The position numbers and the translations under genes are program-made. Below, in pieces: positions 728 through 20,027 of a DNA stretch of 64,000 nt. The stretch comes from Eubacteriales bacterium (GTDB lineage: Bacteria; Bacillota; Clostridia; Oscillospirales; CAG-272): the NCBI GenBank assembly GCA_045535815.1, contig JAZSMJ010000066.1, positions 890 to 64,889 on the forward strand, in the 5' to 3' direction. The notes under the pieces were generated by a model, which made no database searches, had not been told where the DNA came from, and saw only the letters and a program-made list of their open reading frames with translations. Numbering within the stretch: position 1 is the stretch's first letter; each line of letters opens with the position of its first letter.

Positions 728-736
728 AAAGTCTCC

Positions 737-1990: not shown

Positions 1991-2085
1991 ATGTTTTTCT
2001 CCTTTTATGCCTTTCAGCTTTGAAAATATGATTGTTTGTATAGAAAAAGGGCGGTTGCTCACCGCCCTATATCCATATTATTTGA

Positions 2086-2694: not shown

Positions 2695-2752
2695 AGGTTT
2701 AATCTCCTTTTTTTGTTTATGAATTATTTTTTTATTACTTGTGTATCACAGC

Positions 2753-3340: not shown

Positions 3341-3487
3341 TCTGGTCTCCTGTCTGCCGTCTTTGCGGCGTATAGATTTGTCTTTGCGCATTTGTCTTGG
3401 TGGTTCGGTTAAGGCGGAATCACCAAGCGGTGCAGATAATACAGCATGGAATCACTCCTTTCGAGGGCATAAAAATAACTCCCACTT

Positions 3488-4393
3488 TTATTTGTTGTGA
3501 GAGCTGTTACCATACAAATCATGCTGAACTAACGCTGAGTAATAGTTGCCGATGGTAATCGAGGCATTGTACAGCGTTGTCAGTAGATATTGCTTGATGT
3601 TTCGAATTTTCGTTGTGTTTTCTTTCAGGCAGTTAAATACGAATTTGATATGCTCTATGTCCAGCTTTAGTAGCCGTGAGCGAACTATCTCGGAAGGGTG
3701 GTCTGTTCCTGCCACGCGTATATACCTTTTCGTGGAACATACCGTTTCCACTAGAAGTTCTAGTATTTCCTTCAGCCTGTCACGGTCAAGGGGGAGTTCA
3801 TCGTACAGAATGTCATACGAGATATTTTCCTTTATGATTTCTCTGTATATCTCTATATCACGCATATTCGCTTCGTTTCGTTTCGATTCAAGGTCGGTAA
3901 GCACGGAAAGATGTTTACCATCGGAATAGAATGAATCGATGTTTTGTGAGTTAGTAATTGATTTGTGAGTATTTGTTATATCTATATTTAATTGTGTGGG
4001 ATTTTCCTGTTCAGGCTTTGCCAAGATAGGTTTATCCAAGCTTGGATTTTCCAAAACTGGATTTTCCCGTTCAGGTTTTTCCGGTTTAGGTGAAGGCTGT
4101 TTCGGCTGTTCTAGTATAGTGTATTCGATAGAACCGAGCTGACCGTTGGTGCTCCGAACACGCTCACGAATCACATATCCGTGTTCTTCCAGTTCTCTCA
4201 CTCCGGCACAAATGCTGTCTACACCGTCCTTACAGATATGGGCAAGACCTTTAGTGGTGTAGTCCCAATCTTCGGGAAGGGAGAGCATAAGTGAGAGCAA
4301 ACCTTTTGCTTTCAGTGATAAATCCTTATTCCGCAGATGATAATTAGCCATCACGGTATAATCCTTTGTCTTTTCAATTCGGAATACTGCCAT
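3488..4393 (-). CDS. Replication-initiator-type winged-HTH protein typical of Firmicutes ICEs/plasmids
   Basis: Start MAVFRIEKTKDYTVMANYHLRNKDLSLKAKGLLSLMLSLPEDWDYT... is the conserved N-terminal module of this family as I recall it; P/E-rich linker; RBS GAGGGA. Confidence 0.6.
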   Translation of the reverse strand: MAVFRIEKTKDYTVMANYHLRNKDLSLKAKGLLSLMLSLPEDWDYTTKGLAHICKDGVDSICAGVRELEEHGYVIRERVRSTNGQLGSIEYTILEQPKQPSPKPEKPERENPVLENPSLDKPILAKPEQENPTQLNIDITNTHKSITNSQNIDSFYSDGKHLSVLTDLESKRNEANMRDIEIYREIIKENISYDILYDELPLDRDRLKEILELLVETVCSTKRYIRVAGTDHPSEIVRSRLLKLDIEHIKFVFNCLKENTTKIRNIKQYLLTTLYNASITIGNYYSALVQHDLYGNSSHNK

Positions 4394-5009
4394 GCGTGTC
4401 TCCCTCGTTGTCCAGCGACAGAATTGCTGGTCCGTATCTGCTGATAAGAATTGCATTGATAACAAGCCGAAATGCTTCTTCATCGTATATCTCGGGGTCG
4501 GCAAGTTCATCCGCTTTCATGTCGTTTGATTGTGTGTACAGGCTTTTCGCCGCTTTATACAGTGCATATTGTTTGATATTCATGCCGAGAAGCTGTGTGA
4601 AACGAAAATCTATTCTCAGATTTGTGAAGCACTTTGACATACGGCTGAACAAGTCGGCATCTGCGGTCAGTAGATAGAGAGCCGCATAATATACGTTGGT
4701 GCCCTGTTCTTCAAAATGATCGTATTCAAAATGATCGTATATGATTTGTGTATGAGTGAATCTGTGCTTGTGATTTTTGTCTTTCCATAAAGGTTGATCG
4801 GCATATCTCAATAAGTGTTTCAATCGATTTTGTAGGTGCATATGCTCCAAGAAAAAAGAACGAAACAGCAGCTTATATTCTACAACACCCGTTTCGATTC
4901 TCTCGCTCATCCAAGGGCATATGATCTCTCTGCATCGTCCGCGAATGAATCGCAGGCAATATTTACAGTTCATATCCTGACGTTTGTATTTATATTCTTG
5001 ACGTTTCAT
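4374..5009 (-). CDS. ICE-associated protein of unknown function (DUF6075-like by recollection)
   Basis: Preferred start ATG 5009 with GGAGG upstream; sits between the ParB-like and Rep-like genes, as is usual in such elements. Confidence 0.45.
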   Translation of the reverse strand: MKRQEYKYKRQDMNCKYCLRFIRGRCREIICPWMSERIETGVVEYKLLFRSFFLEHMHLQNRLKHLLRYADQPLWKDKNHKHRFTHTQIIYDHFEYDHFEEQGTNVYYAALYLLTADADLFSRMSKCFTNLRIDFRFTQLLGMNIKQYALYKAAKSLYTQSNDMKADELADPEIYDEEAFRLVINAILISRYGPAILSLDNEGDTHGSIPN

Positions 5010-5087
5010 GATTTCCTCCGATAGATTTTGAAATGACAAACGTCCGATGAGATGAATCACTCAACATCGGACGTTCAAATAAGATAT

Positions 5088-5963
5088 TCAGTTATTGCTT
5101 GTTTTCTGATTTATATTTTCTATTCGCCGTTTATACCACATATCCAGCAGGCGGTAGATTGTTTTTTCGATTTGCTTTGAAGTATAGCTTTTTGGGAAGT
5201 ATTTGCGGAGTTTTTCCAATGTGAGTGTCAGATTCCCACTCTCGGGTTTCTTTTGCTCGGTCATAATCCCCAGCATGGAGTCATCGTCCAATTTGCCTTC
5301 TTGGGACAGTTTCTTCATGCGCTGAGCCTGTGAGAGCGATGGCGTAGCCTGTTCGCTGTCGATAGTGTCAATCAGTAGCAATTGTTCATCAGGTTTCAGA
5401 TAAGAGAGTTCAACAGCAGGCGTCATGCCTATTTTTCCATTATCAACCATTTGTTGAAGTTCAGGCTTCAGTTCGGTCAGTCGTATGTATCTCTGTATTT
5501 GTGCGCGGCTTTCACCTGATTCCTTCGCTATTATTTCATCTGAACGCAACTTCGTCTCAACTTGAGACGAAGTTAAATCACGCCGTGCTCCTTGCCGTTT
5601 TATTGCATCGATTTTCATCTTGTATGCTTTTGCACGTTCGCTGGGGAGAATAAACTCTCTCTGCAAATTGCTGTCTACCATGATGATTGTAGCGACATCT
5701 CTGTCCACATCTCGGACAATTACGGGCATTGTATTAAATCCGGCTTGTTCACAGGCATATTTGCGTCTGTGTCCTGAAATCAGTTCGTATAATCCATTTT
5801 CAATCGGTCTGACAATTGCCGGAACTATAATGCCATATTCTTTGACGCTCTCTATTGTCTGCTTCATGGAGTCATCATCTCTGATGCTGAATGGGTGATT
5901 GGGAAATGAAACAATTTTGCTGATTGGTAAATTCATTATTTGTTCCGTAGAGCCCTTTAACAT
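5088..5963 (-). CDS. ParB/Spo0J-like nuclease-domain partition protein (mobile-element type)
   Basis: ParB-N motifs ...IVPAIVRP...YELISGHRRKYACEQAG...; HTH region SGESRAQIQRYIRL; RBS AGGAGG. Confidence 0.8.
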   Translation of the reverse strand: MLKGSTEQIMNLPISKIVSFPNHPFSIRDDDSMKQTIESVKEYGIIVPAIVRPIENGLYELISGHRRKYACEQAGFNTMPVIVRDVDRDVATIIMVDSNLQREFILPSERAKAYKMKIDAIKRQGARRDLTSSQVETKLRSDEIIAKESGESRAQIQRYIRLTELKPELQQMVDNGKIGMTPAVELSYLKPDEQLLLIDTIDSEQATPSLSQAQRMKKLSQEGKLDDDSMLGIMTEQKKPESGNLTLTLEKLRKYFPKSYTSKQIEKTIYRLLDMWYKRRIENINQKTSNN

Positions 5964-5994
5964 TTTGACCTCCTGCTATGCAAACAATTCCTTG

Positions 5995-6279
5995 TTATAA
6001 TTTTAACTGTATGTATGCTTCCAACAGTTCTTGAAGAGTTCTCCCGGATGTTTCATCGAAGGAAAGTTTTACGGTATATTTTCCGTGCTTATAACAATAA
6101 GGATTTTTAATTTGCTTTACAAAATTATTTATCCGTTCTTCTTGCGTAAGATCTGTGTTAATTTTGACATCCCGAATATCTACTAGCTCATCACGGTCAA
6201 CTGTAAGCAAATCAACATTTTTTAGATTGTCAAGAGTTGTTTTCTTGTTTTCATTATCAGTTATATTATGCTCATCCAT
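5995..6279 (-). CDS. Small conserved ICE-associated protein (DUF6870-like by recollection)
   Basis: 94 aa with ...IKNPYCYKHGKYTVKLSF... motif. Confidence 0.4.
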   Translation of the reverse strand: MDEHNITDNENKKTTLDNLKNVDLLTVDRDELVDIRDVKINTDLTQEERINNFVKQIKNPYCYKHGKYTVKLSFDETSGRTLQELLEAYIQLKL

Positions 6280-6389
6280 CTTGAATCCTTCACTAAAAGT
6301 ATAACGACGATCATTGATAGGATACTCTTTGATCGCCGCTATCGCATCAGAAGCACCTCCATTCCTTTTTAATTTGCAGAAAAAGAAAA

Positions 6390-6436
6390 ATAGGACTAAA
6401 GCGACGCCCGTTTGTCGGGTTTTGCTTTAGTCCTAT
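6390..6436. repeat. Nested hairpin at the recombinase break point
   Basis: ATAGGACTAAAGC (6390-6402) is the perfect complement of GCTTTAGTCCTAT (6424-6436); inner CCCG/CGGG stem. Confidence 0.6.
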
Positions 6437-6445
6437 TATATCAGA

Positions 6446-6586
6446 GGCATCTGCGTATATTCCGTAAAGCTCCCATCCGTCTTTATTCGATATGTATTTT
6501 TCAAAAAAGCTTTTCTGATTTTCAAGCGAGAGCGCCTGGTCGCTCTTGTCTGTCGATACACGGCAGTATACCGCTATCCGCTTCAA
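6446..6586 (-). pseudogene. N-terminal ~46-codon fragment of a serine recombinase (resolvase/invertase catalytic domain)
   Basis: MKRIAVYCRVSTDKSDQALSLENQKSFFEKYISNKDGWELYGIYAD matches the catalytic-Ser N-terminus. The remaining 33 codons of ORF 6347-6586 are unrelated sequence. Confidence 0.65.
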
Positions 6587-6759
6587 GCCTTATCACCTCT
6601 GCAGTCGGGAATATAATGCAGCTCATTTTCTCTTATAAGAGCACGCTCAAGTGCAAGCGTTACCGCCTTTATAAAAAGCTTTTCCATATGCGGATCAAGC
6701 CTTGTGATCTTGGATATCAGCCTCACCCGATCTGCCTTTTTTGATGTGTTCAATTTCAT
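6583..6759 (-). CDS. Small hypothetical protein upstream of the recombinase fragment
   Basis: ATG 6759 preceded by GGAGG; its stop overlaps the recombinase start (ATGA). Confidence 0.3.
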   Translation of the reverse strand: MKLNTSKKADRVRLISKITRLDPHMEKLFIKAVTLALERALIRENELHYIPDCRGDKA

Positions 6760-6927
6760 CGCCTCCACTTGATAAATACGCCCGAAAAGCTTCCCTTATG
6801 AAAAACAAAAGGGGAAAAATTTAAATCATTAAAAAAAATATTTTTTATGCAATCTAAAAACGCATTGACACTTAATGTCAAAAATGGTAGTATAATATAT
6901 AATATTATTTTAAAAAAGGATCATAAA

Positions 6928-7893
6928 ATGAAAAGCTATATTTTGCCTTTCTCTTCCGATGTAGAGGTGCAGACGTATCAATACAGAGCCTTCCCGTTGG
7001 GGATCATTAAAGCAGTTTTAGGTGAATACGATATATTTCTTTGCAACAGATTAATTAATGTTGCGTTTTCTCCGGATAGCGGATTGTTTGATTTTTTAGA
7101 TGATGACCTTTGGGGGTTAAGAGACGGATTCGGTACAATGCAGAGTATGTTTCTTCATCCCGATACATACGGAAAAGGCGGAATGGATATAATTGAACTT
7201 AATAAATCAATGATAGATTCCGGTCATTATATAAACGGTGAATACAACGAGTTTTATATCCGTCAGAAAGCATCGTATAACAAGAGACACTTTGAACACG
7301 ATTATCTCATTTTCGGATATGACGATGAAAAAAGAGTTTTTAAATCAGCCGGATATCTTGCAGATAAAAAGTATTCGATGTTTGATATTGATTATGAAGA
7401 TTACCTGAGATCTGTCATAAACGCAAAGACAAATTTGCTTTTCGTTCACTATATAAAATATAACCAAAATATATCAGTTCAGCTTAATACGGAAAAGATC
7501 AAAGAAGAACTTAATAATTATCTGGGCTCAAAAAAAGATGTTACATCGCCTTCTGATAATATTTATGGAATAAGTGCGTGGAACAGGCTTTGCGAATATG
7601 TAGATCAATCTAATGACGATCTTGATTTCAGATTCGGAAGACTATTCGCGGAACATAAATCTCTTATGCTGTACAGGATGAATAAGCTAAGTGAGCTTAA
7701 AGCGTGCAATGCAGACAACTTGATAGAGCAATACCGCGAAACCGTATACTCGATCGCTCAGCAGATACATAAACTGTTTATCAAATACACAATATCGGGC
7801 GACAAAAAAACCAAAGAAAGAATAGTTGAAAAAATACGATCTGCCACAGAAGCCGAATCGAGAATTATTGAACAGTTTATACTGAAAATATAG
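6928..7893 (+). CDS. Hypothetical cytoplasmic protein (possibly a papain-fold/BtrH-N-like enzyme; weak)
   Basis: Preferred start MKSYILPF. Contains ...FEHDYLIFGYDDEKRVFKSAGY..., reminiscent of the H-x5-GYD motif of BtrH_N/DUF4872-type proteins. No catalytic Cys motif recognised with confidence. Confidence 0.5.
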   Translation: MKSYILPFSSDVEVQTYQYRAFPLGIIKAVLGEYDIFLCNRLINVAFSPDSGLFDFLDDDLWGLRDGFGTMQSMFLHPDTYGKGGMDIIELNKSMIDSGHYINGEYNEFYIRQKASYNKRHFEHDYLIFGYDDEKRVFKSAGYLADKKYSMFDIDYEDYLRSVINAKTNLLFVHYIKYNQNISVQLNTEKIKEELNNYLGSKKDVTSPSDNIYGISAWNRLCEYVDQSNDDLDFRFGRLFAEHKSLMLYRMNKLSELKACNADNLIEQYRETVYSIAQQIHKLFIKYTISGDKKTKERIVEKIRSATEAESRIIEQFILKI

Positions 7894-7963
7894 CAATTTA
7901 AAAAATATGAGCGGTAAAAAAGATGCATTTTGAAAAGCATTGTGTTCTAAAGGACAATTTTGG

Positions 7964-8003
7964 AAGAATACGGCATACCTCTTTTGAGATATGCCGTATT
8001 CTT
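7964..8003 (+). terminator. 14-bp perfect hairpin after the 6928-7893 gene
   Basis: AAGAATACGGCATA (7964-7977) / TATGCCGTATTCTT (7990-8003); T-poor tail. Confidence 0.45.
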
Positions 8004-8094
8004 GTGTTTGTGTCTACAAATGCAAAATTTATTAGGGAAAATGATGAGATAAAATTATCACTTGGAGTATTTTTTATAAACTTCTCTAAAAGTA

Positions 8095-8123
8095 TTTACA
8101 ATTCGTCGAAACAATGATATAAT
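8095..8123 (+). promoter_or_regulatory. Near-consensus sigma-A-type promoter with extended -10
   Basis: TTTACA (8095-8100), 17-nt spacer, TGaTATAAT (8115-8123). Confidence 0.45.
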
Positions 8124-8129
8124 TTTATT

Positions 8130-8340
8130 GTCACACAAACTTAATAATCGGTATTAATGATATTTTCTGCTTTAAGGAATATTATACCTTTTTTTGAGCA
8201 TACCTAAATTAATGGACTTGGTAAAAATGCAAGCTCCTCTAGTTTGGGTATGTCTGAAATATTCATATTCCGGTTAGTTTGTGTGACAACAATCGGAGTT
8301 TGCGTTTTTCGGTGCGTGGCTTCGGTTACGCACCTTTTTA
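8130..8340 (+). ncRNA. Candidate ~210-nt structured RNA (rod-like nested helices), unclassified
   Basis: Bounded by the promoter above and the terminator at 8311-8340. Nested pairings 8129-8141/8276-8288 (13 bp), 8177-8183/8258-8264, 8199-8204/8247-8252. No ORF with an RBS. Confidence 0.35.
8311..8340 (+). terminator. Rho-independent terminator (plus-strand orientation)
   Basis: GGTGCGT / ACGCACC stem followed by a TTTTTATATTCTT tail. The minus-strand reading lacks a T tail. Confidence 0.6.
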
Positions 8341-8358
8341 TATTCTTATATCAAAAAA

Positions 8359-8598
8359 TTAATCAGTGCTTTCATCAAAAGTTTTAAACAGATCGTCTAC
8401 GGCAGTGCCAAGAATTTTCGCAATGACAAAGATCTCTTTATCAGTCGCAAGTCTTACTTGACCTTCTAATTTTGAATAACTTGTAGGATTGATATCACAG
8501 CCCATTGTTTGCATTTTTGAAATAAAATCTCTTTGTGATATTCCTTGTTTTTTACGCAGTTGTTCAATGTTTCGTCCAACAATATTTGCGTTGCCGTA
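8359..8598 (-). pseudogene. XRE-family HTH regulator with an apparent +1 frameshift directly after its ATG
   Basis: The open frame gives YGNANIVGRNIEQLRKKQGISQRDFISKMQTMGCDINPTSYSKLEGQVRLATDKEIFVIAKILGTAVDDLF..., but TGA lies immediately upstream. The only ATG (8602-8600) is out of frame by one nt, and no ATG/GTG/TTG is in frame near the 5' end. Confidence 0.45.
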
Positions 8599-8635
8599 TC
8601 ATTTTTTCTGGGTTTCAATTCCATCACCACTCGAT

Positions 8636-8728
8636 TATAATTCTGTTATAGAATATTATATAACCGAATAGCATTGACATAATTCTGTAATGGAAGTATA
8701 ATATAAATAATTCCGAAACAGAATTATA
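8636..8728 (+). promoter_or_regulatory. Consensus promoter of the 93-aa gene, bracketed by three operator-like repeats
   Basis: TTGACA (8674-8679), 17-nt spacer, TATAAT (8697-8702). ATAATTCTGT at 8637-8646 (+), 8679-8688 (+) and 8718-8727 (-). Confidence 0.5.
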
Positions 8729-8761
8729 ATTTATGTAAAAATTAACAAGCAAGAGGATGTA

Positions 8762-9043
8762 ATGGTATTGGATGATATAAAAAGCAGCATGGAAATACAA
8801 TGCGTTTTATCATTAAGCGAGAAAAGACAGGAAGTATATAAGCTTGCAAAAGAAAAGGGAATTGTATTAGATGAATCGACGCAAGAGTTTTTTGATTACT
8901 ATTTATTTCGGAAGAAAACCGTAATTCAATATGATGAAGATGAAATTATGATTCTTTCAGTAGAAGGTAATTGGGAAGATGAGGTCCACATTAAGCATGA
9001 TGGAACGTATTCCTGCTTCGGAGGGATTAACTGTATTTTTTAA
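8762..9043 (+). CDS. Small cytoplasmic protein of unknown function (alternative precursor candidate; C-terminus ...SCFGGINCIF)
   Basis: RBS AAGAGGA; own consensus promoter and own terminator; directly upstream of the PqqD/rSAM operon. Confidence 0.55.
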   Translation: MVLDDIKSSMEIQCVLSLSEKRQEVYKLAKEKGIVLDESTQEFFDYYLFRKKTVIQYDEDEIMILSVEGNWEDEVHIKHDGTYSCFGGINCIF

Positions 9044-9063
9044 TAATAAATGTATAATTATTT

Positions 9064-9098
9064 TTCCGGACTGTATTTAAGTCCGGAATTTCTTTTAT
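9064..9098 (+). terminator. Hairpin terminator/attenuator between the 93-aa gene and the PqqD operon
   Basis: TTCCGGAC / GTCCGGAA stem followed by TTTCTTTTAT. Confidence 0.55.
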
Positions 9099-9115
9099 AT
9101 AACCGTTCTATATAT

Positions 9116-9156
9116 CATAGAATTATATAGACAAGTATGATTTTTTATGGTATAAT
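9116..9156 (+). promoter_or_regulatory. Promoter of the PqqD-rSAM operon with an abutting operator-like motif
   Basis: CATAGAATTATA (9116-9127), then TAGACA (9128-9133), 17-nt spacer, TGgTATAAT (9148-9156). Confidence 0.5.
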
Positions 9157-9182
9157 ATGTCAAAAGACAATGGGGGATCAAT

Positions 9183-9461
9183 ATGAAAAAGTACATAAAA
9201 AATAAAACCATGGAATATATCGAACTTGATGAATCGGAAACAGTGATTAATGACATTGAAAGCGGAGATATACATTATATTGATGAAGTATCAACGATTA
9301 TTTTAAAGCAACTTGAAAAAGCATTATCGTTTGAAGAACTGATTGTAGCATTGCTTGAGCTGTTTGAAGGGAATGAACATGAGATCAGACAGGATACCGC
9401 CGAGTTCTTGAATGAGCTTGTACAGAAAAATATCATCCTTGAGGTAGAAGATGAAGATTGA
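9183..9461 (+). CDS. PqqD-family protein (stand-alone RiPP recognition element)
   Basis: 92 aa. The pattern ...GDIHYIDEVSTIILKQLEKALSFEELIVALLELFEGNEHEIRQDTAEFLNELVQKNII fits the PqqD fold signature. Its stop overlaps the rSAM start by 11 nt. Confidence 0.8.
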   Translation: MKKYIKNKTMEYIELDESETVINDIESGDIHYIDEVSTIILKQLEKALSFEELIVALLELFEGNEHEIRQDTAEFLNELVQKNIILEVEDED

Positions 9462-10467
9462 ATCTGTCTATTTTGAACTGACGAATATCTGTAATCTGAA
9501 CTGCAAAACCTGCTATAACCGCTCCGGATTGAATAATGAACGCCGGGAGATACCTATAGACGTATTATTTGAGTCAATCGAGAGATTTAATCGGTACGGA
9601 CTGAAATCAGTTCAATTAAGCGGTGGAGAAACAATGCTTTATACAGACATTGTGCCGCTTTTTGAGAAGATTCACAAAGTGCCTGACCTGCCGTTTTCAA
9701 TTTCTACGAACGGTACTGTGCACGGAGATTTATTGCTTGATTATTACAGAAGAGTTCCAAATCTGTATGTTCAGCTTAGTCTGGACGGAGCAAATGAGAA
9801 AGTTAATGCACGGACTCGCGGCAAAGGAAATTTTGAAAGATCTTTGCAGTTTCTCAAAGGATTGCATGACAGCGAGCGTCCTGTAGGCTATCGTATAAAA
9901 ATGGTATTGTCAAAGTATAACGTGGATAATATTCCCGATTATTTCCGTCTTGCCTCAGAGTATGACTGTGAGCCGCGTTTTTCATTTATGAATTCTGTTG
10001 GCAACGGAGAAAAAAACTGGTCTGATATGGCGCTGTCCGATGCAGAGAAAATGAAAGCATTGCGGTATATTGATCAAGCGAACAAAGCTTATAATATGGA
10101 AGTAACGCTTCCGTTCTGTGCGTTCAGCTGCCCGTTTGCAAGTGATGATCCGTATAATGTCAAGCTGAGCTGCATGGTGAAGCCGAACGGAGATATTATG
10201 CCTTGCCAGGGATTATACGATCCGGTATTCACGCTTAGTAATATAAATAAATTTGATGAGAACGAGCTTCAGCAAAACATGGAAAAGCTCTGCAATATTG
10301 CGTGTAAACGGCTGGATATGGACTATGGGTGCAAAAAATGCTTGATTGAACCGCTGTGCAAGAGAGGTTGCCCTGCTATGGCGGTGCTGAATAGCGGTGA
10401 TATTCTCGGAACTGATAAAGAGTGTTCATTCCGCCTCAAGCATTATTTGAAATATCAGCTTAGATAA
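9451..10467 (+). CDS. Radical SAM enzyme with C-terminal SPASM domain (peptide-maturase type)
   Basis: CNLNCKTC (CxxxCxxC) at residues 14-21; SGGE motif; C-terminal Cys cluster ...CMVKPNGDIMPCQG...CKKCLIEPLCKRGCP... Confidence 0.9.
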   Translation: MKIESVYFELTNICNLNCKTCYNRSGLNNERREIPIDVLFESIERFNRYGLKSVQLSGGETMLYTDIVPLFEKIHKVPDLPFSISTNGTVHGDLLLDYYRRVPNLYVQLSLDGANEKVNARTRGKGNFERSLQFLKGLHDSERPVGYRIKMVLSKYNVDNIPDYFRLASEYDCEPRFSFMNSVGNGEKNWSDMALSDAEKMKALRYIDQANKAYNMEVTLPFCAFSCPFASDDPYNVKLSCMVKPNGDIMPCQGLYDPVFTLSNINKFDENELQQNMEKLCNIACKRLDMDYGCKKCLIEPLCKRGCPAMAVLNSGDILGTDKECSFRLKHYLKYQLR

Positions 10468-10505
10468 GAGTATTATTGGAGTTTTCGTACATAAAAAGGA
10501 TCAAA

Positions 10506-11981
10506 ATGAATAATACGAAAATATTAAAAGCAGTTCTTGCCGTTAAAGGAGAATATACCATTACTGTTTTGGGCGTAAGTATGATGCCCGTGTTGAAACA
10601 CGGGCAGACTGTGAAAGTTGTTAAACAGAATAGCTATGTTGTCGGAGATATTCTTGTGTATGAATATAAGAATGAAGGTTTGCTTGCGCACAGAGCGCTG
10701 AAAATTGAAAACGGACGCTATTTCTGCAAGGGTGACAATTCTTTCAGATTGGAAGATATTACTGCGGAACAAGTTATTGGAAAAATTGAACTTGATGAAG
10801 ATGAAAACCGTACCGCAGAGTTTATTGAAGCGTCATATGCTATAAACAGACTGTTCCGAAAGAACGGATATGACATAGAGAAAACAAGATCACATCCGCA
10901 ATATGAAGTATATAAGCATACATATATTGATCGAATACAAAAAAATGAGCTTGTGGTAAATATTCGCAAGCTGGCGAATGGAGTTTCGGTCGAAGATGCG
11001 GAAACAATACGTGCGTTAGAAAAACATAAATGCTTTTATTTGCTGTCTCAGATTCCATCATATAGATCCAAACAGATAATGCAGCTTGCGGTAAGTCAAG
11101 CTGCGACGAAAATTCGATATAATACTTGCGCAGAAGTCTTCGCGGATCTAAAAAATATTCCGTATGCCGTTATCAAAGGCGCAGTATTATCTGATCAGAT
11201 CTACGGTAATTCTGCATATAGAACGTCGGGTGATATTGATCTGTTGATTGCTCCTGATAACGTTCAGGAAGTAAAATCTATTTTAAAAAAACACGGATTT
11301 ATACAAGGATATGTAAACGGCAATGATATCGTTCCGTACAGCAGGCAGGAGCTGATATATCAAAAAGCTTTTACGCATCAGATGGCAGCATTTGTGAAGC
11401 CAACCGGAGTTATGCTGTTTCCGTTTGTTAATATTGATGTTAATCTGGATATATTCTGGGGTGAAAGCGAACGAAAAGCGGATATGCAATCGTTTTTGCA
11501 AAACAGGGAAGATTACAATGTGCTTGGCGTAGAGGTGCAAAAGCTAAAACCGATATACGAATTTATTTCACTTTGCATGCATCACTACAAAGATTGTAAT
11601 TCATTGTATCTGCTCTCGGAGCGAGGCGTCAACCTTTCGTTGTTCTGCGATATTTATTACTATATAACGAAAGTGGCCCCGGATCCTTTTCAACTGAAAA
11701 ACGCGTGCGATTCCTATGGCGTGACGGATTATGTGGCGTATTGCGTATTCCATACTTATAGATTGTTTGAAGATGCTGAGCTTTTGAAATATCATCAAAT
11801 TTTGGCGCCGGGCGGAATCGGTAATCACTACTTTCGATTTGGTTTAACGGAGGATGAATATAAATATCCGGGGTTCGGTATTTCTGAATACGTTTTGAAT
11901 GATTCGTTTCGAGAACGTTTTCTTTCATGCCTTAATGAAAAGGATATTGAAAAAATAGAGATAAACAAAAAGTTTATGTAA
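10506..11981 (+). CDS. Fusion: N-terminal SipW/ER-type (S26B/S24-like) serine peptidase domain without a TM, plus C-terminal NTP_transf_5-type nucleotidyltransferase
   Basis: VSMMP ... GDILVY ... AHRAL ... CKGDNS parallels the B. subtilis SipW motifs GSMEP/GDVITF/THRIV/KGDNN. No hydrophobic N-terminal segment. The C-terminal part has SGDIDLLIAP. Confidence 0.7.
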   Translation: MNNTKILKAVLAVKGEYTITVLGVSMMPVLKHGQTVKVVKQNSYVVGDILVYEYKNEGLLAHRALKIENGRYFCKGDNSFRLEDITAEQVIGKIELDEDENRTAEFIEASYAINRLFRKNGYDIEKTRSHPQYEVYKHTYIDRIQKNELVVNIRKLANGVSVEDAETIRALEKHKCFYLLSQIPSYRSKQIMQLAVSQAATKIRYNTCAEVFADLKNIPYAVIKGAVLSDQIYGNSAYRTSGDIDLLIAPDNVQEVKSILKKHGFIQGYVNGNDIVPYSRQELIYQKAFTHQMAAFVKPTGVMLFPFVNIDVNLDIFWGESERKADMQSFLQNREDYNVLGVEVQKLKPIYEFISLCMHHYKDCNSLYLLSERGVNLSLFCDIYYYITKVAPDPFQLKNACDSYGVTDYVAYCVFHTYRLFEDAELLKYHQILAPGGIGNHYFRFGLTEDEYKYPGFGISEYVLNDSFRERFLSCLNEKDIEKIEINKKFM

Positions 11982-11996
11982 ATACGGGGATTTTAA

Positions 11997-12776
11997 ATGA
12001 GATTACATATTCAACTTCCATATCACGAAGATAGCTACACGGTCGATACCGAGTGTGAAGAAATAATCAGCGCACTGCGAATTACATACGGCAAATTTTG
12101 TAATACACTCGAGTGTGAAGATATGTATGTTTATAGGATAATCCGAGATGGGGAATCATATAAATTAACGTATAACGGACACAAGAGAAATACGGATACA
12201 CCTCTTCAAATTCTGCACAATGCGATGTTTACACATAAAAAGATATCCCCGGGTATTTTTGCACTTCATGCAGGCGGTGTTGAGTGGGGCGGTAAAGCAT
12301 ATATTTTCTGTGCTGCCACGTCTACGGGAAAAACTACTTTGACTGCATATCTGACACAAAAGGGACTGAACTATATTGCAGATGATTGTGTTTTTGTAAA
12401 TATGAATGATCTGATGGTCTATCCATGCCATACACCTATTCATCTGAGAGACGGCGGATATAAAGTTCTGCGCGATTTGGGAGTGTTGGAAGATCCCGCT
12501 TTCTGTGTGGATGACAGATATGTTTATATGCCCAATAACCTCTCTTCGATGCAGATGGAGCTTGGTGGTATATTTTTTATAAATCGCACTGAGAATGAGA
12601 ACGTTATAGAGATACCCGATAAGGCAACTACCCTGCGGAATCTGATGCTGTCCCCAATTACAAGCTATCCGATGAAGAAAGAGTACATTGCGTTTTTGAA
12701 CAGATTAACACCATATTGCCGTAGCATAAAGTATAGTGATATGGACTACGTGTTAAATAAAATTCTGACAATATAA
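11997..12776 (+). CDS. HPr-kinase-related P-loop protein (RiPP-associated Ser/Thr kinase type)
   Basis: ...FALHAGGVEWGGKAYIFCAATSTGKTTLTAYLTQKGLNYIADDCVF... matches the HprK C-terminal-domain-like core (HA..V, GKT/S, DD). Confidence 0.7.
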   Translation: MRLHIQLPYHEDSYTVDTECEEIISALRITYGKFCNTLECEDMYVYRIIRDGESYKLTYNGHKRNTDTPLQILHNAMFTHKKISPGIFALHAGGVEWGGKAYIFCAATSTGKTTLTAYLTQKGLNYIADDCVFVNMNDLMVYPCHTPIHLRDGGYKVLRDLGVLEDPAFCVDDRYVYMPNNLSSMQMELGGIFFINRTENENVIEIPDKATTLRNLMLSPITSYPMKKEYIAFLNRLTPYCRSIKYSDMDYVLNKILTI

Positions 12777-12778
12777 CA

Positions 12779-12815
12779 AAAGACCCACAGCTTATAAAAC
12801 AGCGGGTCTTTTATT
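12779..12815 (+). terminator. Imperfect hairpin terminator after the kinase-like gene
   Basis: AAAGACCC ... GGGTCTTT followed by TATT. The 5' arm ACCCACAGC is shared with the terminator at 14286. Confidence 0.5.
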
Positions 12816-12848
12816 GCATTTTTGAAAAAATGAAGCCTTTCGACATAA

Positions 12849-12899
12849 TTCGTCGTAAAAAGTGTAGTTAATAAACATTTTTTCGTCGTAAAAAGTGTA
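12849..12899. repeat. Perfect 18-bp direct repeat x2, 33-bp period
   Basis: TTCGTCGTAAAAAGTGTA at 12849-12866 and at 12882-12899, upstream of the ATPase gene. Confidence 0.7.
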
Positions 12900-12977
12900 T
12901 TTGTTTTCCAAAAGTTCATTGTTTTTTTGTAATTGTGTGCTATACTATACTTGTATTATAATGACGGAGGTGCGTGT

Positions 12978-14276
12978 ATGTACCGAATTGCTATTGAAAA
13001 GCTGTTGAAATGGAAACAAAGCGAACGCCGTAAGCCTTTAATTATCGAAGGTGCACGTCAGGTCGGCAAGACTTGGCTGATGAAAGAATTCGGCAGGCAG
13101 GCGTATGCGGATACCGTATATATTAATTTCGACTCCAATTCCAGAATGGCAGAGCTGTTTGCTTCGGATCTGGACACCGAGCGCTTGATCATGGGCTTGG
13201 AGGTGTATGTGGGGCGCAAAATAGATCCCGACAACTCTTTGCTTATTTTCGATGAAGTACAGGAAGTTCCGAGAGCACTCACGTCTCTTAAATATTTTTA
13301 CGAAAATGCGCCGCAGTATCACATTGTATGTGCCGGTTCGCTACTCGGCATTGCGTTGCATCAAGGTACGTCTTTCCCCGTGGGCAAGGTGGATTTCTTA
13401 AAACTGTATCCCCTTTCCTTCAAGGAATTTTTGATGGCAACCGATAAGGAACGATTTGCCGAGCTGCTTGATAAGCGAGACTTCGATATGATCACGAGCT
13501 TTAAGCAAACGTATATTGATGCTTTGAAGCATTATTACTTTGTTGGCGGTATGCCTGAAGCTGTGCAAAGCTTCGCAGAGAATAGAGATTTTAATGAGGT
13601 TCGTGAAATTCAAAAGAGGATCCTTGCAGCCTATGAACAAGATTTCTCCAAACATGCTCCCAACGAAATCGTTCCGAGATTGCGTATGCTGTGGAACAGC
13701 ATACCCTCTCAGTTGGCAAAAGAAAATAAGAAGTTTATCTACGGGCTTGTTCGTGAGGGCGCTCGTGCAAAAGACTATGAAACTGCAATTATGTGGCTCA
13801 GCGATTGCGGTCTTGTTCATAAGGTCAGCCGTATCAATGCCCCGGGTATCCCCTTGCGTGCTTATGAGGACTTGAAAGCGTGTAAGCTATTTGTGGTAGA
13901 CGTTGGTCTCCTCGGCTGTATGGCCGGACTTCGTCAACGAACCTTGCTTGACGGAAGCGACCTTTTTGTTGAGTTCAAGGGTGCACTTACAGAACAGTAC
14001 GTTTGTCAGCAGTTAAAAACTGTAGATGACCTGGATGTATATTACTATACAAACGACAGAGGCACTTGCGAGGTTGACTTTGTCGTTGATACGGGCGAGT
14101 TGATCGTACCCGTTGAAGTAAAGGCAGAGGTAAACCTTAGAGCAAAGAGCCTAAAAAACTATCATGAAAAATTCTCTCCCGAAGTTTCTGTCCGTACATC
14201 TATGGCGGACTATAAAAAAGAAGAATGGCTTGTTAATCTTCCGCTGTATGCGATAGATCGGATAACTCAAATATAA
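12978..14276 (+). CDS. AAA-type ATPase with DUF4143-like C-terminal domain
   Basis: Start MYRIA with GGAGG upstream; Walker A GARQVGKT; Walker B LLIFDEVQ; visibly higher GC than the flanking genes. Confidence 0.8.
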   Translation: MYRIAIEKLLKWKQSERRKPLIIEGARQVGKTWLMKEFGRQAYADTVYINFDSNSRMAELFASDLDTERLIMGLEVYVGRKIDPDNSLLIFDEVQEVPRALTSLKYFYENAPQYHIVCAGSLLGIALHQGTSFPVGKVDFLKLYPLSFKEFLMATDKERFAELLDKRDFDMITSFKQTYIDALKHYYFVGGMPEAVQSFAENRDFNEVREIQKRILAAYEQDFSKHAPNEIVPRLRMLWNSIPSQLAKENKKFIYGLVREGARAKDYETAIMWLSDCGLVHKVSRINAPGIPLRAYEDLKACKLFVVDVGLLGCMAGLRQRTLLDGSDLFVEFKGALTEQYVCQQLKTVDDLDVYYYTNDRGTCEVDFVVDTGELIVPVEVKAEVNLRAKSLKNYHEKFSPEVSVRTSMADYKKEEWLVNLPLYAIDRITQI

Positions 14277-14285
14277 GCGGACACA

Positions 14286-14321
14286 AAAATACCCACAGCG
14301 TTTATAAGCTGTGGGTATTTT
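14286..14321. terminator. Perfect 14-bp bidirectional terminator
   Basis: AAAATACCCACAGC (14286-14299) / GCTGTGGGTATTTT (14308-14321), with A/T runs on both sides. Confidence 0.75.
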
Positions 14322-14332
14322 AATGTTTTTAC

Positions 14333-14509
14333 TTACATTTTTATCGGCGGATTGCCCGGAATAGAGTCGAGATGATATCCCGCCGGGAAGCAATCAGAAC
14401 CATCATCATAATTTGAACAAGCAGAAACAGCAATTCTTTCTTTTATGCTTTTGTCATTTACTGTGAGCATTGACGGTTTTTTCCAAGTTGTTTTCATATT
14501 ATTTTCCAT
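14333..14509 (-). CDS. 58-aa peptide, candidate RiPP precursor (below the 60-aa cut-off of the ORF track)
   Basis: MENNMKTTWKKPSMLTVNDKSIKERIAVSACSNYDDGSDCFPAGYHLDSIPGNPPIKM. AGAGG lies 5 nt upstream of ATG 14509. It starts 11 nt after the stop of the upstream gene and ends at the 14286-14321 terminator. Confidence 0.5.
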   Translation of the reverse strand: MENNMKTTWKKPSMLTVNDKSIKERIAVSACSNYDDGSDCFPAGYHLDSIPGNPPIKM

Positions 14510-14520
14510 TTTTACCTCTG

Positions 14521-15558
14521 TTAAAAGAATTTTTCTATATGTTTTTTTAATGTATTGAAATAGGTTGAATTTATACTGTAATAAACAAATTTTCCTTGTT
14601 TGGTGTGTATAGTCAATCCGGATTTTTCAAGCATATTTAAATGATAAAGCGTGCTGTTGTTTTTTAAGCCCAATTCTTTGGCTATCTGTGCACAAAACAT
14701 ATCTTCTTTGGCTAACATATTCAATATTTTAATGCGCTGCTCGTCATAAAGAACACGGCCTAATTCATATAAATTAATTTTTTCCACATTTGAATCAATG
14801 TCATATAACGATAAATACGGTTCACTGTTGATTCCCAATAATGATACCCAGGTATCAGGCGTGCTTTCGTATGAGTTTGCAACAACAAGCACTGAGCAAC
14901 AAGAGACGTATATATTTTCAAATTGAGTAATATCCTTGCAGAATATAGAGCTTAAGAGATTAATATATTTTGATTCAAAATCTTTAACTAACTGCTTGAT
15001 TTCATTCTGATGTATTTGGTTGAATTCTCTGCAAAGCGCTTCTACTTTTCTAAGTTCGGAAATGATCTCTTCAATTTCTCTATCTCCGTACATGAGAAAA
15101 TAGAATATGTACATCTTAACGTCACTTGGCAGGTCAGCATTGAAAAGTTCATCTTTTATTGAGCAAATAGTTTCAACGTCAAAAATATCGGGACTATTCT
15201 CTGAAACATAGTTTTTGTAAATCGTTTGTTTCAATCTGTTTATATCGCGAAGCGAATCATAGAAACGCTCAATCAAACCGTCTTGAGGATTTGAAGCGAT
15301 TTTAACGTATTTGCGAATATGAGAAACAAGCGCTGTTTTTATGTTTTTTTCTTTGTTACAATAAAATAAACATAATAATTTGTCCGGGATGTTTGATAAT
15401 CTTTCGATGATCAATTTGTAGAAGTTTTCATTCTGCTCATAGGGAACATTATCTGTTCGCAATTGAATATACGCACGCTCGCCGTTAAAACGAAGCTTCA
15501 GAGCGAATAACATGTCATAAAGTATACCGGGCTCTTTTAAATATACGATATTGTTCAA
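14521..15558 (-). CDS. ArsR-family winged-HTH regulator with a long N-terminal domain of unknown function
   Basis: C-terminal ...DEQRIKILNMLAKEDMFCAQIAKELGLKNNSTLYHLNMLEKSGLTIHTKQGKFVYYSI is a classic ArsR/HTH_20 pattern. Confidence 0.7.
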   Translation of the reverse strand: MNNIVYLKEPGILYDMLFALKLRFNGERAYIQLRTDNVPYEQNENFYKLIIERLSNIPDKLLCLFYCNKEKNIKTALVSHIRKYVKIASNPQDGLIERFYDSLRDINRLKQTIYKNYVSENSPDIFDVETICSIKDELFNADLPSDVKMYIFYFLMYGDREIEEIISELRKVEALCREFNQIHQNEIKQLVKDFESKYINLLSSIFCKDITQFENIYVSCCSVLVVANSYESTPDTWVSLLGINSEPYLSLYDIDSNVEKINLYELGRVLYDEQRIKILNMLAKEDMFCAQIAKELGLKNNSTLYHLNMLEKSGLTIHTKQGKFVYYSINSTYFNTLKKHIEKFF

Positions 15559-15745
15559 TAATTCATCTCCTTTTTATTAACGTTCGCACAATAATTCTAT
15601 CACAAAACGAATCAAATGTCAATGATTTTTGGAAATATCAGTTAAAAAATTTGAATTATTCTGTCGAAATACAGTTACGGATTGTGGATTTTTGTTCGAT
15701 GTATGATAAAATATTATTCGATTGTGTTTGGATATATTGGTGATA

Positions 15746-16015
15746 ATGAGACACATTATGGAAGAAACATTGAAAGAAGAACTGCGTTTTCTTGCTTTGA
15801 ACACAAGAGATCAACTTGATCTTACCCAAAGCAAGATGGCTGAAAAGCTTGTTATGAGTGTAAACTCATACTCCGATATTGAGACCGGAGCGCATATGTG
15901 CGGAGCATTAACAACGGTCTTACTGTTGGCGGAACAGGAAGATCCTAAATCTATTTTGCAGGAATTTAAAGAGAAGCTTGATAAATTTCGCAAAAAAGAT
16001 ACTAAAGAGACATGA
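15746..16015 (+). CDS. XRE-family HTH protein
   Basis: ...LRFLALNTRDQLDLTQSKMAEKLVMSVNSYSDIETG...; start uncertain (15722/15746/15758); ATGA overlap with the next ORF. Confidence 0.6.
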   Translation: MRHIMEETLKEELRFLALNTRDQLDLTQSKMAEKLVMSVNSYSDIETGAHMCGALTTVLLLAEQEDPKSILQEFKEKLDKFRKKDTKET

Positions 16016-16254
16016 CCGCCGTTACATACGGGATAGTTGAAGAGCGGTATATACTCGGAAATTGTAGTCGTACCTCTTATGGAATTGCAGCCTATGCAAA
16101 TTCGGAAGTTGACGGATCGGCAATTATAGTTGCTTCGGTAAGCGACGTATCCGATAAAAAGCATGAGATGGAAGAACTTGTCCGTCTGTGCAACAGTATG
16201 GACCTTTCTCCAATTCACCTGTATGATGTAGTCGAAGATTTTCTGTCTATGTAA
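16012..16254 (+). CDS. Small conserved protein (DUF6514-like by recollection), translationally coupled to the XRE gene
   Basis: 80 aa, ...RTSYGIAAY...LSPIHLYDVVEDFL. Confidence 0.45.
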   Translation: MTAVTYGIVEERYILGNCSRTSYGIAAYANSEVDGSAIIVASVSDVSDKKHEMEELVRLCNSMDLSPIHLYDVVEDFLSM

Positions 16255-16315
16255 GATAGAATAAAAAGCACTAAAAATACAATGAAAGGAAAATCCAAAC
16301 ACAATCACACGTTTT

Positions 16316-16345
16316 CCTCCGAGCGTAATCGCTCGGAGGTTTTTC
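16316..16345 (+). terminator. Rho-independent terminator
   Basis: CCTCCGAGCG-TAAT-CGCTCGGAGG followed by TTTTT. Confidence 0.7.
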
Positions 16346-16396
16346 GTTCGTTGCTTTTTAGTTTGAGCTTTTTCGACAAACAATTACTTCCTTATA

Positions 16397-16426
16397 TTGA
16401 CAAATAGTTAGTTATTATGATACAAT
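16397..16426 (+). promoter_or_regulatory. Putative promoter of the ACP/FkbH-like operon
   Basis: TTGACA (16397-16402), 18-nt spacer, TGaTACAAT. The operator-like CATAGAATTATA follows at 16472-16483. Confidence 0.4.
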
Positions 16427-16530
16427 TAATTGTAGAAACATCGCAAATTTATAGTTAATAAGTCTATAATACATAGAATTATACTTTTGGAAATATCGAA
16501 TTATGAGAATGAACAAGCGAGGAATGTGCA

Positions 16531-16788
16531 ATGAAAAAAATAACAAAAGAGAACGTATTGTGTGTGCTTAACGAAACAATTGAAGAAATAAAAATAACCG
16601 AAGAATGCATGGATGTTGATTTAACTCAACTTGGGCTTGACTCTATTCTTTTTATAAAGACTATCGTAGCTCTTGAAGAAGAATTTGAAGTTGAGGTGCC
16701 CGACTCAAAATTGCTGATTGCTGAAATGAATACAGCACAAAAAATATGGGATGTACTGAAAGAGCTTACATCAGAAGGAGATCAATAA
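16531..16788 (+). CDS. Acyl carrier protein
   Basis: 85 aa with phosphopantetheine-attachment motif LGLDSILFIK. Confidence 0.8.
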   Translation: MKKITKENVLCVLNETIEEIKITEECMDVDLTQLGLDSILFIKTIVALEEEFEVEVPDSKLLIAEMNTAQKIWDVLKELTSEGDQ

Positions 16789-18341: not shown

Positions 18342-18455
18342 AAAGCAAAGAATGAAAATTGAAAAAAGGCTTTACAAAATTGATTATATGGTATATAATA
18401 GTTACATCATATCGCTTTAGCATGATAAATTAACAACGCAAAGGATGAATTTGAC

Positions 18456-19268: not shown

Positions 19269-19348
19269 TTTTAATAAGGTCAAAAGGATGAATCGCTGTG
19301 CCGTTTCATAAACGGTACAGCGTTTCGTTTAACGGGAGCACTTATAAG

Positions 19349-20017: not shown

Positions 20018-20027
20018 GGAGGACGGT

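Follow-up and report, generated by a model that had tools for sequence, protein, structure and literature searches.

A probable radical SAM/FkbH sister family of the linear polyphosphorylated peptide clusters in gut Clostridia, with a rearranged member on an Eubacteriales contig

Gene content of the locus

The DNA considered here is a stretch of 64,000 nucleotides from contig JAZSMJ010000066.1 of an Eubacteriales bacterium (the window), and the system in question is a group of genes around 8636–12776, which an earlier note made from the letters alone had described as a cassette for the maturation of a peptide made by the ribosome and modified after translation (RiPP). Domains of the open reading frames (ORFs) were assigned by Pfam and NCBIfam profile searches, and conserved residues were taken from alignments of homologues. 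The system is compared throughout with the linear polyphosphorylated peptide (LPP) clusters of Bacilli (LppA/K/B/S/D/N of Paenibacillus alginolyticus DSM5050; Popov et al., Nat Commun 2026;17:6633, PMC13381572). The LPP core comprises the SipW-like SpI peptidase LppS, the discrete RiPP recognition element (RRE) LppB, the HprK-like LppK, the NTP transferase LppN and an MsbA-like exporter (PMC13381572).

The central operon is composed of the following elements, S and N being the two domains of one fused gene (S::N).

9128–9156, plus strand: extended −10 promoter (TAGACA-17-TG-TATAAT) before the RRE–rSAM–S::N–K operon
9183–9461, plus strand: B, PqqD-family RRE gene (Pfam PqqD, 4.9e-11)
9451–10467, plus strand: radical S-adenosylmethionine (rSAM) gene with a SPASM domain (Radical_SAM, 7e-25)
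10506–10934, plus strand: S domain of the S::N fusion gene (TIGR02228, 8.5e-10; Peptidase_S24, 1.3e-4)
10935–11981, plus strand: N, nucleotidyltransferase (NTase) domain of the S::N fusion gene (NTP_transf_5, 5.4e-26)
11997–12776, plus strand: K, HprK-like P-loop kinase gene (TIGR04352, 3.4e-11)

The four plus-strand genes are intact and tightly packed, as had been stated earlier: according to the ORF list, the end of the RRE gene (9461) and the start of the rSAM gene (9451) overlap by 11 nt, the gap between the rSAM gene and the third gene is 38 nt if the latter begins with ATG 10506, and a further 15 nt separate the third gene from the kinase gene. The longest ORF of the third gene begins with TTG 10476. 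ATG 10506 is the likely start, since AAAGGA is located 7 nt upstream, the N-termini of relatives align with it, and the database record (491 aa) is called from this codon. The single extended −10 promoter claimed for the operon was recovered in a promoter scan, and the AT-rich island is real: the GC content is 0.30–0.42 over about 6000–18500 and 0.43–0.50 in the flanks.

Further genes of the conserved system are located on both sides of the operon.

6847–7893, plus strand: U, protein with the CtaG/CcbD/AziU fold, BtrH-like family (AlphaFold2 (AF2) model and Foldseek)
14333–14509, minus strand: A, precursor peptide of 58 aa with a homologue family beside R; core at ~14336–14419
14521–15558, minus strand: R, 345 aa, with a C-terminal winged helix-turn-helix (HTH) of ArsR/SdpR type (HTH_5, 1.8e-8; SdpR family, 1.9e-14)
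16531–16788, plus strand: stand-alone acyl carrier protein (ACP; PP-binding, 1.8e-8; DSI phosphopantetheine site with Ser38)
16746–18341, plus strand: FkbH-domain protein (TIGR01686, 9e-66, 222 bits vs a cutoff of 146.65)

Conservation across related loci

One genome per GTDB species was scanned with an NTase alignment, which gave 79 loci; 80 distinct loci found through the NTase were searched with profiles. Many contigs are truncated, and the component counts are lower bounds. The rSAM gene is present in at least 61 of the 80 loci, ACP in at least 67, FkbH in at least 65, the kinase in at least 55, the RRE in at least 49 and the peptidase in at least 47. N, K, S, RRE and rSAM occur together in 43 loci, 36 of which also carry ACP and FkbH. 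Co-conservation of the four genes, expected for a genuine cassette, is clearest among the 47 peptidase loci (rSAM in 46, kinase in 45, RRE in 44). The gene set is more than a chance association and recurs in dozens of genomes. Almost all hosts are gut Clostridia (Oscillospiraceae, Acutalibacteraceae, Ruminococcaceae, Lachnospiraceae), a cultured example being Fumia xinanensis NSJ-33 with two loci.

The canonical gene order is R-A and then K, S::RRE, rSAM, ACP::FkbH and N, often followed by U; locus L032 of Fumia xinanensis NSJ-33 (A, R, K, S::RRE, rSAM, ACP::FkbH, N) is a canonical cluster. The window deviates from it by inversion of the R-A pair, by the S::N fusion, by an AAA_14/DUF4143 gene that separates K from A, and by unfused ACP and FkbH genes, which are located at the far end. 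Gene fusions vary between loci and include S::RRE (29 loci, Pfam-confirmed), ACP::FkbH (31 loci), S::rSAM (one locus), S::N (the window) and ACP::FkbH::N (P0065), and therefore all components are tied into one functional network. Because the additional parts known from relatives are also present in the window outside 8636–12776, the cluster is likely to extend over ~6847–18341 (roughly 11.5 kb) with the four genes as its central operon. The four-gene cassette is consequently not the self-contained unit that it had been taken for, since the precursor, R, ACP/FkbH and U all lie outside 8636–12776. This range does contain the four conserved genes; the orphan unit with a 93-aa ORF that it also holds does not belong to the conserved system.

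Locus L013 has two genes for MsbA-like ABC exporters (604 and 591 aa) between rSAM and ACP::FkbH (L013 3324–6910). A size-matched gap is seen at the same place in L010, L017, L022, L038, L049 and L068. More distant loci (L050, L051, L059, L064, L065, L072, L082 and others) keep K, N, ACP, FkbH and U, and have a larger rSAM (450–490 aa) and no SipW-like peptidase; they may represent a second subtype of the system.

Proteins of the central operon

The RRE is 76% identical to its orthologue in L004 (tblastn), and its counterparts in the 29 S::RRE loci are fused to the peptidase. Its similarity to LppB is weak, although end to end (20% identity, E 3e-4). The rSAM enzyme is 70–72% identical to the orthologues from L001–L004. 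Alignment of 71 family members confirmed the features previously read from the sequence: the CxxxCxxC motif at residues 14–21 (C14/C18/C21) and the SPASM cysteines C227, C252 and C294-x2-C297-x5-C303-x3-C307, kept in at least 90% of the members. Domain searches of the protein detected no N-terminal RRE. The closest solved structures are SkfB (5e-11), PqqE (1e-8) and CteB (2e-8). The best NCBIfam matches are ScmE, MftC, StsB and DynA, all far under the cutoffs (bits vs cutoff: StsB 88/625, PapB 56/340, PqqE 66/381, MftC 98/265, ScmE 98.4/400), and the alignment with MftC is full-length (4.5e-28). Since SkfB, PqqE and CteB are nearest and every family score is far below its cutoff, the sequence places this protein among the peptide-modifying SPASM enzymes, in no named subfamily. 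Anaerobic sulfatase maturase, which would have spoken against a peptide substrate, is not the best match. The peptide-modifying type of rSAM, the gene co-conservation and the leader-peptidase homology described below support the original view of the operon as a RiPP-type maturation cassette.

The S domain matches Peptidase_S24 and the archaeal-type signal peptidase I model TIGR02228 at aa 25–104, and NTP_transf_5 matches at aa 215–430 of the same protein. The catalytic residues of S are Ser35/His72/Asp87 counted from TTG 10476, or Ser25/His62/Asp77 from ATG 10506. The domain is 30% identical to LppS (E 7e-12), and its triad aligns with S29/H68/D93 of that proven leader peptidase, so a Ser-His leader peptidase, as had been suggested, is the appropriate family. 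The motifs GxSMxP, HR and KGDN are kept in at least 90% of 51 S homologues. No transmembrane segment was found in the S domain (maximum Kyte–Doolittle 19-residue mean, 1.37), in agreement with the cytoplasmic SipW-like character proposed for it. By its sequence, S is predicted to be a cytoplasmic leader peptidase similar to SipW/archaeal-type (S26B) signal peptidases.

The fusion of S to N is exactly in frame with both domains complete. At the junction (...HTYIDR/IQKNELVVNIRKLANG) the peptidase end ...PQYEVYKHTYIDR runs straight into the NTase start. The NTase of relatives begins with MNKETLLNNIRRLAAG, and the window has ATA at the position of its start codon. A search with the fusion protein gave 233 homologues, all of ~350 aa and covering the NTase part only (69% of the query). 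In the closest relatives, L001–L004, S is a separate gene of 143–146 aa, the NTase is a separate gene of 340–350 aa, and a ~390-aa gene with a PP-binding domain lies between them. An ArsR-like gene of ~350 aa with a small ORF behind it accompanies the cassette of the relatives, and so does a ~355-aa gene devoid of known domains. A deletion, with loss of the PP-binding gene, was considered as the origin of the fusion and rejected, given the clean end-to-start junction and the presence of ACP and FkbH elsewhere in the window. S and N are separate genes in all 80 related loci, and an exact-sequence look-up of the fusion protein returned no second record, so that the fusion is known from one assembly. 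No other locus carries S::N, and the fusion therefore arose locally and does not characterise the family. The peptidase::nucleotidyltransferase of the earlier note is thus real and intact, but it results from the joining of two genes end to start, is confined to the window and is no trait of the cassette.

The GDxD motif of N (D253/D255) is conserved among homologues. A profile search of PDB sequences with the NTase gave no match, and the fold comparison alone was informative: the AF2 model of the N orthologue P0004 (pLDDT 93) matches MenT1, ANT(2'')-Ia and LnuA, and more weakly the CDP-ribitol phosphotransferase FKRP. According to the modelled fold, N is an NTP_transf_5 nucleotidyltransferase-like enzyme with a Pol-beta core. 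The kinase and its L001 orthologue share 57% identity, and an alignment of 56 homologues shows conservation of Walker A (G111-K112-x-T114) and of D129/D130; a sequence search of PDB with K gave no match. The scores of the kinase and RRE profiles are low as well (bits vs cutoff: HprK_rel_A 42.8/200, PqqD_rel_X 19.1/35, ScmC 17.3/125).

Precursor peptide and its R partner

The precursor A consists of the leader MENNMKTTWKKPSMLTVNDKSIKERIAVSA and the predicted core CSNYDDGSDCFPAGYHLDSIPGNPPIKM. A ribosome-binding site (GAGG) precedes its gene by 7 nt, and the stop codon is followed by a terminator hairpin. R is located directly upstream on the same strand and is co-transcribed with the precursor. 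Iterated HMM searches of related loci revealed 24 distinct small homologous ORFs, and 23 of 25 are directly downstream of R. R itself is present in 29 of the 80 loci and is 59% identical to the L001 orthologue; no Pfam match was obtained for its N-terminal 260 aa. The closest named relative (L001/L005, metagenome-assembled genome GCA_017467815.1) has two R-A pairs and a RelB-like gene at the position of the RRE.

The aligned leaders read W-x-K-P-x3-T-[LI]-...-I-x-x-x-A, followed by [C/W/R/M/S]-S. The WxKP element is of the PqqA/lasso type, which discrete PqqD-family RREs bind. The variable residue is preceded by an Ala and followed by a Ser, both of which are invariant in 24 of 24 distinct precursors, and a Cys, the single universally conserved Cys of the core, follows 2–9 residues past this Ser. 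Signal peptidases follow the −3/−1 rule. The residue three before the proposed cut is small or aliphatic (Ala, Val, Ile, Leu or Gly), and since this residue and the Ala fit the rule, cleavage after AxA is predicted.

Core length and sequence vary widely across loci (13 to 28 residues). In the short class of precursors the Cys is followed by exactly five residues and a terminal Arg (C-x5-R), e.g. WSGEGICDFEDFR. The class represented in the window has a longer tail, C-S-x-Y...C-x-P...DS[IF]PG...PPVEIM, and 14 further short representatives from a library of 1.84 billion proteins share ACS-x-Y...C-x-P...DS[IF]PG...PPVEIM. Long repetitive library matches (P0136, P0138, P0150 and others) were discarded as repeat or low-complexity false positives. 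Pfam and NCBIfam models gave no match to the precursor peptides.

ACP, FkbH and U proteins

The FkbH protein carries a HAD-IIIC phosphatase/acyl-loading domain at aa 211–494; for its N-terminal ~210 aa no family match was found. D218-x-D220, K302, D324/D325 and S478-C479-R480 are kept in at least 90% of 66 homologues. With a score over the curated cutoff, the HAD motifs and an ACP gene directly upstream, the protein fits the FkbH family. FkbH and OzmB load glyceryl from 1,3-bisphosphoglycerate. In relatives, the ACP::FkbH gene is directly upstream of N and overlaps it, and P0065 is a triple fusion ACP::FkbH::N.

The true start of U is probably M28 (~6928). A profile of U gave no match to PDB sequences. 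Foldseek comparison of its AF2 model (pLDDT 81.6, pTM 0.77) with PDB gave AziU2/U3, CtaG and CcbD as top matches (E 1e-7 to 1e-5, probability 1.0, TM 0.5–0.6). CtaG is the closthioamide amide synthase and CcbD the lincosamide condensation enzyme, and one matched CcbD entry is a complex with a peptidyl carrier protein domain; this fold family acts on substrates bound to carrier proteins. Homologues of U occur in 31 of the 80 loci, frequently right after the NTase or FkbH gene. H151, D160 and S167 are invariant in an alignment of 14 sequences.

Proposed pathway

The cluster probably belongs to an uncharacterised, mainly clostridial rSAM/FkbH sister family of LPP, produces a modified ribosomal peptide and is represented in the window by a rearranged member. 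In the proposed pathway, the RRE would present the precursor leader to the enzymes. The kinase could phosphorylate the invariant Ser at core position 2, perhaps repeatedly, in parallel to LppK, which puts up to four phosphates on core Ser3 (PMC13381572). A radical cross-link, most simply a thioether, could be formed by rSAM-SPASM via the single conserved core Cys. The peptidase would cleave after the conserved AxA and release CSNYDDGSDCFPAGYHLDSIPGNPPIKM; leader removal by LppS (S29/H68/D93) requires LppB (PMC13381572). A glyceryl-type three-carbon unit could be loaded onto ACP by FkbH, and the ACP-bound unit may serve N and/or U for a decoration of the phosphoserine, of the new N-terminus or of both, which is the least certain step. 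Since rSAM-SPASM and the core Cys are conserved, the product of the family would not be simply linear, unlike LPP.

The "radical cross-linking plus phospho/nucleotidyl tailoring" suggested by the earlier note understates the pathway, because the precursor, its ArsR-like partner, ACP/FkbH and the CtaG/CcbD-fold protein lie outside the range considered there. A further-reaching version, in which the cluster defines a new RiPP class, with N, the glyceryl-type unit of ACP/FkbH and the Cys-less U building a phospho-linked or N-terminal three-carbon decoration on the rSAM-cross-linked peptide, is put forward only tentatively.

Several observations weigh against the proposed sister-family assignment and pathway. 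Every chemical step beyond homology is inferred. Kinase, RRE and rSAM all score far under the NCBIfam cutoffs of every named family, and no RRE is detectable in L001/L005. The cleavage site of LppS has Thr at −1 and Phe at −3 instead of AxA, and LppN, the sole LPP NTase tested, was inactive in a heterologous host, for which the authors propose a missing partner (PMC13381572). The leader of this family is WxKP...AxA with 18 residues to the proposed cut, compared with YxxP and 12 residues in LPP. The alignment of 14 U sequences has no invariant Cys corresponding to the nucleophile of CtaG and CcbD, and therefore an acyl-transfer role of U is uncertain and its chemistry may differ. No MsbA-like exporter is present in the 64-kb window. 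Finally, the arrangement in the window is unique and stands beside a mobile-element remnant, so that this copy may be unexpressed or incomplete.

Surroundings of the cluster and alternative explanations

The remaining features of the window are as follows.

3488–4510, minus strand: DUF6017/HTH_36 replication-initiator-like protein (mobile-element remnant, window 1–6600)
5088–5963, minus strand: ParB (mobile-element remnant)
6347–6586, minus strand: resolvase, N-terminal 40 residues only (mobile-element remnant)
8359–8598, minus strand: XRE-type HTH reading frame (HTH_3, 9e-5)
8674–9088, plus strand: orphan transcription unit with a 12/12 sigma-70 promoter (8674–8702), a 93-aa ORF (8762–9043) and a terminator hairpin (9064–9088)
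12933–14276, plus strand: AAA_14/DUF4143 ATPase gene between K and the precursor, with a higher GC content (0.46–0.47)
15722–16015, plus strand: XRE-type HTH protein, 97 aa (HTH_3, 7e-6)
16012–16254, plus strand: DUF6514 protein, 80 aa (DUF6514, 3e-14)
18456–20789: amino-acid ABC importer, the sole ABC system of the window
47044–48453, minus strand: MiaB-type methylthiotransferase (UPF0004, Radical_SAM, TRAM), a second radical-SAM gene, housekeeping and unrelated

Homologues of the DUF6514 protein occur within or beside the cassette in ~20 loci, which makes it an accessory of a conserved kind; single ORFs in L019, L030 and L036 match both HTH and DUF6514 profiles, suggesting fusion. A minus-strand ORF of 190 aa (15811–16383), which overlaps the XRE/DUF6514 pair, is probably spurious. 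The AAA_14/DUF4143 gene is probably an insertion outside the pathway; a homologue also adjoins the kinase gene in L017. In the XRE frame at 8359–8598, the HTH is preceded by none of the start codons ATG, GTG and TTG, and the listed ORF begins only with a Met internal to the frame, which is thus a pseudogene or else has an unusual start codon. A resolvase also adjoins the L013 cluster. Neither a tRNA nor another clear site of integration was detected for the island, and an Rfam scan of 6000–19000 gave a single sub-threshold chance match. Beyond the cluster, the amino-acid ABC importer is followed by housekeeping genes.

Absence of a lasso cyclase, a B2 protease and an ABC exporter, which had been noted earlier, was confirmed for the whole 64-kb window. 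No Asn-synthetase-like lasso cyclase or ABC exporter occurs among the ORFs of at least 500 aa, all of which are accounted for; no ORF of the window is a transglutaminase-like B2 protease, and neither this protease nor the cyclase is seen in related cassettes.

Even if the family assignment holds, the window copy could be a rearranged, decaying remnant that yields no product. The unique gene order, the inverted R-A pair, the AAA_14/DUF4143 insert of higher GC content, the fused S and N genes and the lack of an exporter would agree with this, as would the truncated resolvase, the start-less XRE gene and the orphan ORF nearby. Each conserved gene is, however, full-length with intact catalytic motifs; promoters, ribosome-binding sites and terminators are good, and the fusion is in frame with both domains complete. 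Decay of the copy is considered unlikely.

The product could also be a peptide-derived small molecule or cofactor like pyrroloquinoline quinone (PQQ) or mycofactocin, in which case a trimmed cross-linked, phosphorylated or glyceryl-bearing fragment would stay inside the cell. The PqqA-like WKKP leader and the alignment of the rSAM with PqqE and, over its full length, with MftC (4.5e-28) point in this direction; exporters are lacking in the window and in many relatives, and the fixed positions of the core are few (Ser, Cys and the C-terminal residue). But the cores range from 13 to 28 residues and are variable in sequence, which is typical of RiPP natural products rather than of a universal cofactor, some loci carry MsbA-like exporters in the operon, the distribution is patchy and linked to mobile elements, and no partner oxidoreductases are conserved nearby. 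Variable cores and the exporters of some loci speak against a cofactor-type product, which is regarded as improbable.

The 93-aa ORF was rejected as a precursor: it is an orphan and lacks a W/YxxP leader motif, searches of Pfam, NCBIfam and PHROG gave no match, and neither the 80 loci nor 5.8 billion proteins contain a homologue. Possibly the unit is a small gene restricted to its lineage, or else its transcript is non-coding. The idea of a self-contained four-gene hybrid of the sactipeptide/ranthipeptide type, with no described kin, a designed bifunctional fusion and a precursor nearby such as this ORF, draws on the tight operon behind its own promoter, the resemblance of the rSAM to sactisynthases, and the perfect promoter (TTGACA-17-TATAAT), terminator and Cys-containing C-terminus of the ORF, but it is largely refuted by the comparative data and very improbable, given that S, RRE, K and N constitute the published LPP core, that S::N is confined to the window and separate in 80 loci, that a conserved precursor exists at 14333–14509 while the ORF has no homologue or leader motif, and that the cassette is accompanied by ACP/FkbH and U and shares gene fusions with ACP and FkbH.

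Comparison with known systems

LPP clusters and the window share an LppS-homologous Ser/His/Asp peptidase and a discrete PqqD-family RRE, as well as an HprK-like kinase and an NTP_transf_5 transferase, K and N being likened to LppK and LppN by family only. A [Y/W]xxP leader element, a Ser 2–3 residues past the cut and MsbA-like exporters in some relatives are also common to LPP and this family. Because peptidase, RRE, kinase and NTase form the defined LPP core (PMC13381572), the core is not undescribed. The statement of the earlier note that the pathway was not recognised as described is therefore correct only for the rSAM and ACP/FkbH additions, which are undescribed in the literature searched: no paper on the rSAM/FkbH combination was found there, and a review of human-microbiome RaS-RiPPs covers different clusters. 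Radical SAM, SPASM, FkbH, acyl carrier proteins and Clostridia are not mentioned in the main text of PMC13381572, and its sequence tables do not contain the S-family motifs CKGDNS and KGDNSF; LLAHR is matched there by one protein only, which comes from Paenibacillus and is unrelated. The supplementary tables of PMC13381572 list other groups with SpI and RRE.

Compared with LPP, this family adds rSAM-SPASM, the ACP and FkbH pair and the CtaG/CcbD-fold protein. The LPP motif YxxPxVLxHQxIxFET/xxS (the slash marks the cut) is absent; the precursor family of the window has WxKP...I-x3-A/x-S instead. Its cores contain Cys and its hosts are gut Clostridia, whereas LPP hosts are Bacilli, and its clusters are neither embedded in capsule loci nor located beside lasso clusters, unlike those of LPP.

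The lasso peptides paeninodin and pseudomycoidin (PadeK/PsmK, PsmN) share an HprK-like Ser kinase, an NTP_transf_5-type protein and a W-type RRE-binding leader with this family. In pseudomycoidin, an NTase of the PsmN kind is required for attachment of hexose to phosphoserine (PMC6993621); N is likened to PsmN by the Pfam family NTP_transf_5 only. Lasso systems have a cyclase and a B2 cysteine protease, neither of which is present here, and a C-terminal target Ser. This family, unlike lasso peptides, has its invariant Ser close to the N-terminal end of the core and a serine enzyme as leader peptidase.

Sactipeptide/ranthipeptide (SkfB, CteB, PapB), PQQ (PqqA/D/E) and mycofactocin (MftA/B/C) systems share a full-SPASM rSAM and a discrete PqqD partner with the window. 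The WKKP leader of the window is PqqA-like, and the conserved core Cys could donate a thioether. The kinase, NTase, FkbH/ACP and SipW-like peptidase are absent from all these systems. Assignment to the sactipeptides/ranthipeptides is at variance with scores under the cutoffs and with cores that are not Cys-rich and have one universal Cys. For PQQ and mycofactocin the scores are likewise under the cutoffs, and the precursor has neither E...Y of PqqA nor the C-terminal VY of MftA. The HPr-rel-A (TIGR04352/TIGR04353) and SynChlorMet (ScmC/ScmE/ScmF) cassettes of Haft, which also pair an HprK-related protein with PqqD and/or rSAM-SPASM, give the best or near-best NCBIfam matches for K and rSAM, although far below the cutoffs for membership; both are in silico cassettes and themselves uncharacterised.

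The FkbH protein of the window shares the HAD motifs, the SCR Cys and an adjacent ACP with FkbH-type glyceryl-S-ACP synthases (FkbH, OzmB, tetronate pathways). U has the CtaG/CcbD/AziU fold, as compared with the carrier-protein-dependent amide synthases (CtaG, CcbD, BtrH), and lacks the catalytic Cys. Known examples of the FkbH and CtaG types serve polyketide or aminoglycoside/lincosamide pathways, and the link to a peptide comes here from gene neighbourhood and fusions only.

The work on LPP left the final product and the role of the NTase open, and this family provides a candidate for the missing chemistry: the LPP core is retained in it, and the NTase is tied to ACP/FkbH by overlapping genes and a triple fusion. 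If true, the N/ACP/FkbH/U reading would identify the "missing partner" proposed for LppN by Popov et al. and would be, as far as the literature search showed, the first FkbH/carrier-protein chemistry on a ribosomal peptide. The precursor family, with its clear leader, a likely site of cleavage and candidate sites for modification, points to an unexplored group of peptides of the gut microbiome in dozens of gut Clostridia. The leader peptidase, with its apparent AxA specificity as judged from the precursor alignment, could serve as a tool. The core of the system is already known as LPP; new here are the added components (rSAM-SPASM, ACP/FkbH, CtaG-like), the family of precursors and the distribution among Clostridia.

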